A stretch of DNA of 64,000 nucleotides from Escherichia phage JN02. The notes below the pieces were generated by a model, which was not told where the DNA came from, made no database searches, and was given only the letters and a program-made list of their open reading frames with translations. Positions 26,699-27,889 of this stretch are shown one piece after another (positions within the stretch are counted from its first letter, which is position 1; every line of letters starts with the position of its first letter). The DNA lies in sequence record MT782071.1, one strand, 5' to 3'. The position numbers and the translations under genes were made by a program.

Positions 26699-27067
26699 TT
26701 ATGCAACTTTAATCCAATTGTCTAAATTTAAAACACCTTTGGCTTTCATTTTTTCTATCAGGTTATCTGCTGTAATGCGTCCATTTTGATACCATGTAAC
26801 ATCTTCAGAGTAACCAGTTTCTTCGTCAACGTATGTTTCTGAACGAATTTTACCGGTAATAATAGTTTTTAATTCGTATGTGTCACCTGTGAAAAGGTTT
26901 GCTAACACAATTTTCCAAGAGAAATCATCAGAAGGACCTTCAGGGGTCATACAACCTACGAACTCAAATTGCTCTTTGTATAACATCCACTGGAATTCTT
27001 TAATTTCGATAGCTTTATAACCATCGTGGTCTTTACATTTGATGTATGAGTTCAGATTGATTTTCAT
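26699..27067 (-). CDS. hypothetical protein (30.8 position)
   Basis: 122 aa, ATG start, early promoter upstream. Confidence 0.6.
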   Translation of the reverse strand: MKINLNSYIKCKDHDGYKAIEIKEFQWMLYKEQFEFVGCMTPEGPSDDFSWKIVLANLFTGDTYELKTIITGKIRSETYVDEETGYSEDVTWYQNGRITADNLIEKMKAKGVLNLDNWIKVA

Positions 27068-27109
27068 TTTGTTCTCCAGGTGGTTTTATTGATTAGATGG
27101 TACAAGTCT

Positions 27110-27138
27110 ATAGTAACACATCCTACAGGAGAGTAAAC
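27110..27138 (-). promoter_or_regulatory. early promoter
   Basis: GTTTAC, 17 nt, TACTAT upstream of ORF 26699..27067. Confidence 0.6.
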
Positions 27139-27174
27139 ATCTTTTTAAACTTTTTCTGCCCTAAACGCACAAAA

Positions 27175-27192
27175 GGGAGACCGAAGTCTCCC
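27175..27192 (-). terminator. intrinsic terminator after the 59-aa basic ORF
   Basis: minus strand GGGAGAC-UUCG-GUCUCCC followed by UUUUG. Confidence 0.75.
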
Positions 27193-27197
27193 TAAAA

Positions 27198-27377
27198 TTA
27201 TGCAGCAACCTTTCCAAAACGAGAAGCATCATCTCGAAGAACTGCACGTGCTCTGCGCATGATCTTCTCAACTGTTTGATTAATACGAGAGTTCGACCCA
27301 CGCTTGTATCCAGCGCGTTTAGAGGTACCATCAACTTTCTTTTCAACTGCTTTCTTTGCTTTAGCTTGTTTTGCCAT
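27198..27377 (-). CDS. small Lys/Arg-rich protein
   Basis: 59 aa hand-translated (MAKQAKAKKAVEKK...); ends 6 nt before a terminator hairpin; replaces track ORF 27161..27346. Confidence 0.45.
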   Translation of the reverse strand: MAKQAKAKKAVEKKVDGTSKRAGYKRGSNSRINQTVEKIMRRARAVLRDDASRFGKVAA

Positions 27378-27640
27378 TATAAATTCTCTTTAAATGAAAA
27401 TGCAGGACTTATTGACATTGCCTGCGCAAGCCCTCAAGGGGAACATAGGTTTTGGATATTTAACGACAGGATAACCATAAGCCCGTCATCATACCAACCA
27501 CGACTTAGACAGATAACCTTTTTCTGACGCGTGATAGTACAAAATACATTCAAGAGGTACACCGTAAAATTGTCGGGGTCTTAAAACTATAATGATTCGC
27601 AAATCATTAATCAGACAATTCGACGGCTCCTCGATTTAAC

Positions 27641-27889
27641 TTACTTCAGGGTAATAACAAAATGACGAACTGCTTTACGTGCTGCAGAAGCCAGAGGCTT
27701 AGCATATTTCAATTCATCTTTCTGGACCAGGATATCGCGAAGATCGGCTTGTGCTGGATTCAGATGTTTGAAATACTGTAAGATTTCAAGAGCTTCGGCT
27801 TCAACATCAATAGATGCGCCGTAATTGTCATGGCCATTATTCCATGCATGGCGTTGCAGTTCAAGAGCGTGTTGTAATTGTTTAGTCAT
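27641..27889 (-). CDS. rIII: rIII lysis inhibition accessory protein
   Basis: 82 aa; size, position and remembered sequence similarity to T4 rIII. Confidence 0.85.
   Translation of the reverse strand: MTKQLQHALELQRHAWNNGHDNYGASIDVEAEALEILQYFKHLNPAQADLRDILVQKDELKYAKPLASAARKAVRHFVITLK

Follow-up and report, generated by a model that had tools for sequence, protein, structure and literature searches.

Gene 30.9 of a T4-like phage and the predicted structured RNAs of the spacer upstream of it

T4 (NP_049823) and T2 are annotated as encoding a conserved hypothetical protein, gp30.9, and RB69-type records also annotate the gene. It is one of many conserved T4 early proteins without an assigned role. 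The T4 30.9 transcript is classed as early, and its product was undetected by proteomics (Wolfram-Schauerte et al., PMC9697503, Table S2). Knock-down of 30.9 by CRISPRi-ART was scored as 'Not Fit', with no fitness cost on the laboratory host (PMC11879866 supplement). In the literature searched, no function is assigned to gp30.9 and no RNA is described in the spacer that precedes it. The upstream neighbor rIII has early, middle and late promoters, and its product binds ribosomal protein S1 and damps RegB (PMC9409239). The pseudoknot in the gene 32 mRNA of T4 has been considered as possibly the only viral pseudoknot in translational autoregulation (PMC3014915, a review of 2010).

The DNA analyzed here, a stretch of 64,000 nucleotides from Escherichia phage JN02 that is called the window throughout, carries this gene. 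The features of the gene and its surroundings are as follows.

27641..27889, minus strand: rIII, lysis-inhibition accessory protein, upstream gene (phrog_1457)
27198..27377, minus strand: CDS, ortholog of T4 gene 30.9 (31.-2), by phrog_1427, annotation in relatives and conservation
27175..27192, minus strand: predicted intrinsic terminator stem-loop, GGGAGAC-UUCG-GUCUCCC, -14.1 kcal/mol
27162..27174, minus strand: U-rich tract after the terminator stem (UUUUGUGCGUUUA; UUUUUU(A/G)UUU in relatives)
27161..27346, minus strand: ORF of the mechanical track, TTG start, 61 aa, +1 frame of 30.9; spurious, a non-gene
27110..27138, minus strand: candidate T4-type early promoter for 30.8, GTTTAC (27133-27138), 17-nt spacer, TACTAT (27110-27115), read from the sequence
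26699..27067, minus strand: gp30.8, downstream neighbor (PF06019)

Identity and conservation of the reading frame

The ORF at 27198..27377 on the minus strand has an ATG start, encodes 59 amino acids beginning MAKQAKAKKAVEKKVDGTSKRAGYKRG (full product MAKQAKAKKAVEKKVDGTSKRAGYKRGSNSRINQTVEKIMRRARAVLRDDASRFGKVAA) and ends in a TAA stop at 27200-27198. The first-pass annotation had proposed this protein in place of the track ORF, and it is present exactly as noted, being the conserved and annotated gene T4 30.9. A homology search with the 59-aa sequence, as had been suggested, returned phrog_1427 (E=2.6e-31, residues 1-58), and tblastn recovered T4 and T2 30.9 at 93% identity over residues 17-59. 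With tblastn the ORF turns up in 1006 phage records, whose hosts include Escherichia, Klebsiella, Shigella, Enterobacter, Yersinia and Serratia. T4-like Mosigvirus genomes share 96-97% identity with the 1.4 kb around the gene, for which 768 phage records match, and in ATK47 the ORF is annotated as '30.9; T4 gene synonym 31.-2'. Full-length similarity, position and frame conservation all place the protein in the T4 gp30.9 family (PHROG 1427).

The T4 protein (NP_049823, UniProt P17310) is about 90% identical to that of the window, has 58-59 residues, is likewise encoded between rIII and 30.8, and shares the stop-proximal terminator. The two differ by a one-residue insertion, KKVDGTS in the window vs KKVGDS in T4, and by the C-terminal tripeptide, which is VAA in the window and QKA in T4. 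An old UniProt model of T4 30.9 with 97 residues (11.1 kDa) is impossible in the window because an in-frame TAA lies five codons upstream of the ATG, and the short start of 58-59 residues is confirmed over that model. The family comprises 65 clusters in a set of 5.8 billion proteins. When 1.84 billion representatives were searched exhaustively with a profile, 17 matched, all small phage-type proteins except a repetitive protein of 617 aa that was rejected as a false positive. Judged from these searches, the family appears to be small and confined to T4-like phages.

The correction replaces a mechanical ORF call by a gene found, through annotation or by search, in about 1000 related genomes. 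The gene itself has long been annotated in T4, so the re-call is correct but ordinary and adds no function. In several deposited genomes (e.g., H4, H31, H52, H60 and H114) 30.9 is labeled '1,4-alpha-glucan (glycogen) branching enzyme, GH-13-type', and in one 31.1 is labeled 'tail fibers protein'. Both labels are evident automatic-annotation errors that propagate.

Dozens of ORFs near this size occur in the AT-rich window, and a length of 59 codons is not unusual by chance. The reality of the gene therefore rests on conservation and not on the ORF itself. The comparison covered 44 loci, made up of the window, three records from GenBank and 40 contigs from IMG/VR, and none of them interrupts the 30.9 frame. 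The +1 frame of the track ORF contains between one and seven stops in 28 of the 37 distinct sequences and is open only in the closest relatives. This is the opposite of the pattern that the first-pass annotation had named as telling against its proposal, namely relatives that keep the other frame open and break this one. The initiating methionine is an invariant alignment column within a conserved MAK or MSK start, and variable sites are distributed over codon positions 1, 2 and 3 as 34, 27 and 52. With a median pairwise dN/dS of about 0.3, 30.9 is under purifying selection. Upstream sequence is included in 43 of the loci, and 41 of these keep the order rIII, gap, 30.9, terminator, next gene, as does one distant metagenomic lineage.

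In three distant metagenomic lineages the homologue forms a self-contained unit consisting of a promoter, a Shine-Dalgarno sequence, the ORF and its own terminator. The promoter is sigma70-like and close to consensus, such as TTGACC-17-TATAAT, and the Shine-Dalgarno sequence is AAGGAG. The stand-alone units encode homologues of 62-88 aa.

L045, 2434-2500: distant 30.9 homologue, stand-alone unit
L046, 1076-1216: distant 30.9 homologue, stand-alone unit
L044, 2414-2500: distant 30.9 homologue, stand-alone unit

In one lineage the homologue adjoins the DNA ligase gene, lying directly after it, and in another it follows gp31-rIII. The distant proteins retain the core SKRAGYKRKSNKRV..QL.R.ARKAL and gain Lys/Ala-rich C-terminal tails. 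In some of them the Lys/Ala-rich tail is C-terminal instead of N-terminal.

Taken together, there is little room for doubt that 27198..27377 on the minus strand is a genuine coding gene, the ortholog of T4 30.9, in a Mosigvirus or T4-like phage; this applies to its identity and to its gene structure. That the 61-aa ORF might be the real gene and the 59-aa frame fortuitous is close to inconceivable. The track frame is indeed open in the window and its closest relatives (T4, Mosigvirus), but it begins with TTG, gave zero PHROG matches in the search that assigned the 59-aa protein to phrog_1427, and is interrupted in most of the distinct relatives. It also spans the hairpin at 27175-27192, as had been pointed out, and that terminator is conserved. 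The 61-aa ORF is thus a spurious chance ORF. It is likewise very improbable that neither frame is translated and that the stretch is merely a structured 3' part of the rIII transcript. RNA structure is abundant in the surrounding spacer, and gp30.9 was not seen in T4 proteomics, which would fit such a transcript. However, the longest predicted tryptic peptide has 7 residues, and with peptides this short non-detection is expected. Furthermore, the frame is kept over deep divergence with the dN/dS and the third-position excess given above, the invariant start codon is accompanied by an SD-like element, and the distant homologues are independent promoter-SD-ORF-terminator units.

The transcription unit and its spacer RNAs

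The stop codon of 30.9 is followed by a hairpin after a short gap, as had been described, although the gap is 5 nt (27197-27193) and not the 6 nt given earlier. The hairpin has the features of an intrinsic terminator, with a stem of 7-8 bp containing 5 G-C pairs, a UUCG loop and a U-tract directly 3' of it. The minus strand after the hairpin reads UUUUGUGCGUUU, and relatives have U5-U8. The RNAfold energy of -14.1 kcal/mol includes an extra A-U pair. Of the 32 distinct downstream sequences, 31 have a hairpin (-13.7 to -18.6 kcal/mol) and a U-run 3-13 nt past the stop. At least five stem variants, each complementary, were found (GGGAGAC/GUCUCCC, GGACUCC/GGAGUCC, GGGAACC/GGUUCCC, GGGACUC/GAGUCCC and GGGGCUCC/GGAGCCCC), and the predicted terminator is conserved with compensatory stem changes. 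It has been annotated as a terminator by others in the near-identical ATK47 and WFK. An automated strict scan that demands at least 5 U in the 8-nt tail returned no terminator at 27175-27192, presumably because the A-U extension of the stem leaves only 4 U in that tail window. For this region a terminator in phages of the T4 type was reportedly described by Truncaite et al. in 2006 (Virology 344:378).

Downstream of the terminator, the sequence at 27110..27138 is called a candidate early promoter on the basis of the T4 early-promoter consensus. The region 27067-27160 on the minus strand also contains the 30.8 Shine-Dalgarno sequence (CUGGAGAACAAAAUG), which includes GGAG, the motif cut by RegB. 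The region matches a cassette of terminator, early promoter and RegB site that has reportedly been published for the stretch upstream of 30.8. A further neighbor, gp30.7, belongs to PF06919, and 30.9 as a whole sits in a plastic region of accessory genes between 31 and 30.

Upstream, the gap between rIII and 30.9 is non-coding and measures 263 nt in the window and roughly 120-416 nt across the loci, and the terminator scan found no terminator-like site in the gap of the window. From this layout, with both genes on the same strand and a gap of this kind between them, we infer that 30.9 is probably co-transcribed with rIII in a unit closed by the predicted terminator. The sigma70-like promoter that the homologue possesses in the distant lineages counts against co-transcription. 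The spacer contains several predicted RNA structures.

27444..27487, minus strand: predicted H-type pseudoknot (core) in the rIII-30.9 spacer, from covariation; covariance-model span 27438-27494
27431..27441, minus strand: small leader hairpin H2, CCC-UUGA-GGG; recurs as CCCUUCGAGGG, CCUCUUAGAGG and similar in relatives
27402..27425, minus strand: leader hairpin H3, GCAGG...CCUGC, with a conserved ..GUCAAUAAG.. loop, by eye
27384..27400, minus strand: ribosome-binding region with SD-like AAGAG (27386-27390), 8 nt before the AUG, by eye and tentative

The unannotated structured RNA of the spacer is more interesting than the gene re-call itself. A pseudoknot module of 45-55 nt recurs across all the lineages compared except the distant 30.9 lineages. 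Its predicted stem S1 pairs 27482-27487 with 27465-27470 (GACGGG/CCUGUC in the window), and S2 joins 27473-27476 to 27448-27451 and could be lengthened to 27479 and 27444, respectively. The S1 loop carries ..GGUUAUC.., and a 3' segment complementary to this loop forms S2. The module has classical H-type geometry: loop 1 is 1-2 nt long, loop 2 is 2 nt long, and the A-rich loop 3, near-invariant and single-stranded, has 13 nt (CGUUAAAUAUCCAAAAC). S2 varies between lineages while remaining complementary: AUGGUU/AACC(U)AU, UUGUUGGUU/AACCAACGG, UAGUAGUU/AACUACUA, GAUGG/CCAUC, GUGAG/CUCAC and CAAG/CUUG.

In a MAFFT alignment of 29 distinct sequences, the same sequences from which the structure was derived, the crossing helices are paired in 80% of cells vs 32-49% for slid controls, and 8 pairs have changed on both sides. 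Covariation scores 0.363, compared with 0.152 for shuffles (0 of 500 reach 0.363) and at most 0.144 for slid versions. G-U pairs (18 cells) favor the sense strand of 30.9. The support for the leader fold is this covariation, the nested MFE of the leader being no better than that of shuffles (z = -0.39). A covariance model finds a single copy in the 64-kb window (E=9e-13), and in 769 phage records blastn likewise detects the module once per genome, mostly where nothing is annotated; the metagenome loci contain only pseudoknot variants already seen. No Rfam family, including the preQ1, SAM-II and fluoride riboswitch pseudoknots, matches the module at E<=1. The Rfam S15 leader scored 20.5 bits (39.5 are required) elsewhere in L020, off the pseudoknot.

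The distance from the pseudoknot to the AUG ranges from 77 to 284 nt, and its order relative to other modules varies. Several roles for the element and its surroundings were considered and either rejected or found to be unsupported. A leader peptide could start at a conserved AUGAUG that borders the pseudoknot on its 5' side, but it was rejected because this small ORF shifts in frame and length through single-nucleotide indels between close relatives. The pseudoknot as a stimulator of rIII read-through or frameshifting was dropped, its distance from the rIII stop ranging from about 5 to more than 200 nt. A promoter at the conserved TATGAT is unsupported, there being no consistent -35 or MotA box across lineages and T4 having GAATGAT. 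Finally, H3 and its U-run were dismissed as an attenuator of the riboswitch type, as the U-tract is unconserved (AAUUAUUACC or AAAGAUUACUCC in other lineages).

A second structured element of 135-147 nt, typically 138 nt, occurs in the rIII-30.9 spacer of 22 related loci and is absent from the window.

L006, ~1254-1391: 138-nt element; also in L007, L008, L010, L011, L013, L015, L016, L020-L023, L028, L033, L035, L037, L039-L041 and L043

RNAalifold predicts 40 pairs in this element, 18 of them with compensatory changes, including a hairpin capped by a GNRA loop. Depending on the lineage it lies before or after the pseudoknot. A single copy per genome is present in 407 records of phages from Klebsiella, Escherichia, Enterobacter and Yersinia, mostly at 90% identity or above, and the element has no match in Rfam. 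It has never been annotated as an RNA; the records either leave it bare or place a 'hypothetical protein' over it, calls that are taken to be spurious. No tRNA or tmRNA was found in the spacers of relatives.

The remaining leader structures, H2, H3 and a mini-hairpin at the ribosome-binding region, were read by eye and have weaker evidence than the pseudoknot. The stems of H3 vary in other lineages yet stay complementary (GAACUGG/CCAGUUC and GGGAGC/GCUCCC). The SD-like AAGAG may pair with an upstream UUUUC (27396-27400) in a mini-hairpin that is present in the MFE structure of the leader, and other lineages have CUCC...GGAAG or CCUC...GAGG at this site. Between the window and loci L022-L034 the 115-nt stretch before the ATG (within 27378-27500, minus strand) keeps 86-96% identity, whereas in the same loci the 30.9 CDS is only 65-71% and rIII 54-82% identical to the window. 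Single-nucleotide indels show that this stretch is non-coding. The high identity reflects either strong constraint on the leader or a recombination breakpoint at the start codon, that is, modular shuffling.

In the distal spacer (27501-27640, minus strand) small hairpin modules form a mosaic, with close relatives differing in which of them they carry. Among these are a hairpin UAAUGAUU-UGCG-AAUCAUUA at about 27581-27600 (minus strand) and a block of about 50 nt at about 27498-27549 (minus strand) with CAGA-AAAAGGUUA-UCUG, which is missing in T4. Just past the rIII stop, a conserved GGAG (AAAUCGAGGAGCC, about 27628-27631) could be an intergenic RegB site.

The protein and its possible roles

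The 59-aa protein has a mass of 6.5 kDa, a pI of 11.35 and a net charge of +13, with 10 Lys and 8 Arg vs 5 acidic residues. Its N-terminal residues 1-19 are Lys/Ala-rich and predicted to be disordered. An AF2 model from an alignment of 41 sequences has disorder over residues 1-19, a short helix over 20-27 and a long helix over 30-54. Its mean pLDDT is a moderate 66, with 81-88 across residues 31-50. The long helix is basic and strongly amphipathic, its hydrophobic moment reaching 0.77, with I32, V36, I39, A43 and V46 on one face. The conserved motif is SKRAGYKRxSNxR, and the invariant and near-invariant positions are concentrated in S19-K-R-A-G-Y-K-R-x-S-N-x-R-I and R42-A-R-A-V. The residues with the highest invariance (S19, K20, K25, N29, R42) are basic or polar.

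The earlier description of the protein as rich in Lys, Arg and Ala is borne out by these counts and by the Lys/Ala-rich tail. The nucleic-acid binding suggested on that ground fits the basic composition, but the likeness to histone-like or ribosomal families that came with it was not recovered. Neither the protein nor 41 family members matched Pfam at E<=1, HU/IHF (PF00216, Bac_DNA_binding) and H1-like families included, and searches of NCBIfam and PADLOC gave nothing significant. The same was true of PDB searches by single sequence and by profile, and of Foldseek against PDB and BFVD. The matches to SlmA (PDB, E ~0.3), RBM45, YbaK and Arc_C were discarded as chance-level helix matches. Membership in the histone-like HU/IHF family is thus without support by sequence or profile, and the ribosomal and ribosome-associated families (bS21, bL34, Sra, RMF and others) have no Pfam, NCBIfam or PDB match.

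Basic composition is by itself insufficient proof of nucleic-acid binding, and it does not separate RNA from DNA. With this understood, gp30.9 is probably a nucleic-acid binder of some sort. A narrower role in binding RNA or ribosomes has somewhat less than an even chance; it is favored over roles confined to DNA or protein because of the ARM-like core, the early timing and, by guilt of association, the neighbor RIII. The protein would then be a small Arg/Lys-rich binder whose basic motif and tail contact phosphate backbones, while the hydrophobic face of the helix would mediate dimerization or docking. It may serve as a dispensable accessory early in infection, possibly in the control of mRNA or translation alongside its S1-binding neighbor RIII.

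Two other roles deserve consideration, and each is unlikely on present evidence. As a DNA-binding protein of the H1-like or nucleoid-associated kind, gp30.9 would coat or compact host or phage DNA early. The tail (AKQAKAKKAVEKK) and the KKAK-type C-terminal tails of the distant homologues resemble the low-complexity tails of H1 or AlgP type. However, the Pfam and NCBIfam searches gave no Bac_DNA_binding, H1-like or other DNA-binding match, the sole PDB matches were those to SlmA dismissed above, and the composition cannot tell DNA from RNA. Alternatively, the helix would dock on a protein of the host or the phage, such as a defense or translation factor, with the tail incidental, and gp30.9 would be an accessory or counter-defense factor required on some hosts only. 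A protein-contact role is in keeping with early expression, dispensability on the laboratory host and location in the accessory-gene region, and also with the strong hydrophobic moment of the helix and the confinement of the family to T4-like phages (17 of 1.84 billion representatives). Against it stand the lack of a PADLOC or anti-defense match, albeit from a library of defense and not counter-defense proteins, and the basic or polar nature of the most invariant residues, which suggests contact with a polyanion and not a hydrophobic interface.

Comparison with known systems

Under the favored reading of gp30.9 as an RNA- or ribosome-associated protein, the closest likenesses are to ARM peptides and small basic ribosome-associated proteins. 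The lambda N ARM, bS21, Sra and RMF resemble gp30.9 in size, in extreme basicity and in combining a disordered tail with a helix, but no sequence or profile similarity to any of them is detectable. Histone-like proteins (HU/IHF and those with H1-like tails) have in common with gp30.9 a low-complexity Lys/Ala-rich tail and a high pI. In contrast, HU and IHF possess a dimeric beta-arm fold, whereas a single long helix is predicted for gp30.9, and there is no Pfam match between them.

For the spacer RNA, the nearest described system is the operator of T4 gene 32, where an H-type pseudoknot likewise precedes the start codon of a gene of the nucleic-acid-binding type by tens of nucleotides and is followed by an A/U-rich sequence that contains UUAAA (PMC3014915). 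The 30.9 spacer shares with it a predicted, covarying H-type pseudoknot in the 5' leader. It differs in being at another locus and in having no fixed relation to the RBS, with other modules intervening, and no A/U tract leading to the RBS. The sequence of the gene 32 operator is presumably unrelated to that of the 30.9 pseudoknot. The pseudoknot is missing from the distant 30.9 lineages and is therefore not an obligatory partner of gp30.9. That gp30.9 is an arginine-rich RNA-binding protein that recognizes the spacer RNA, in a second autoregulatory or RNP circuit possibly tied to the RIII-S1-RegB axis, is a long shot. The covarying spacer RNAs, absent from annotations and from Rfam, provide a testable handle on a possible part of gp30.9 in the control of phage mRNA or translation. 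If the proposal were true, T4-like phages would possess a second pseudoknot-based circuit besides that of gene 32.
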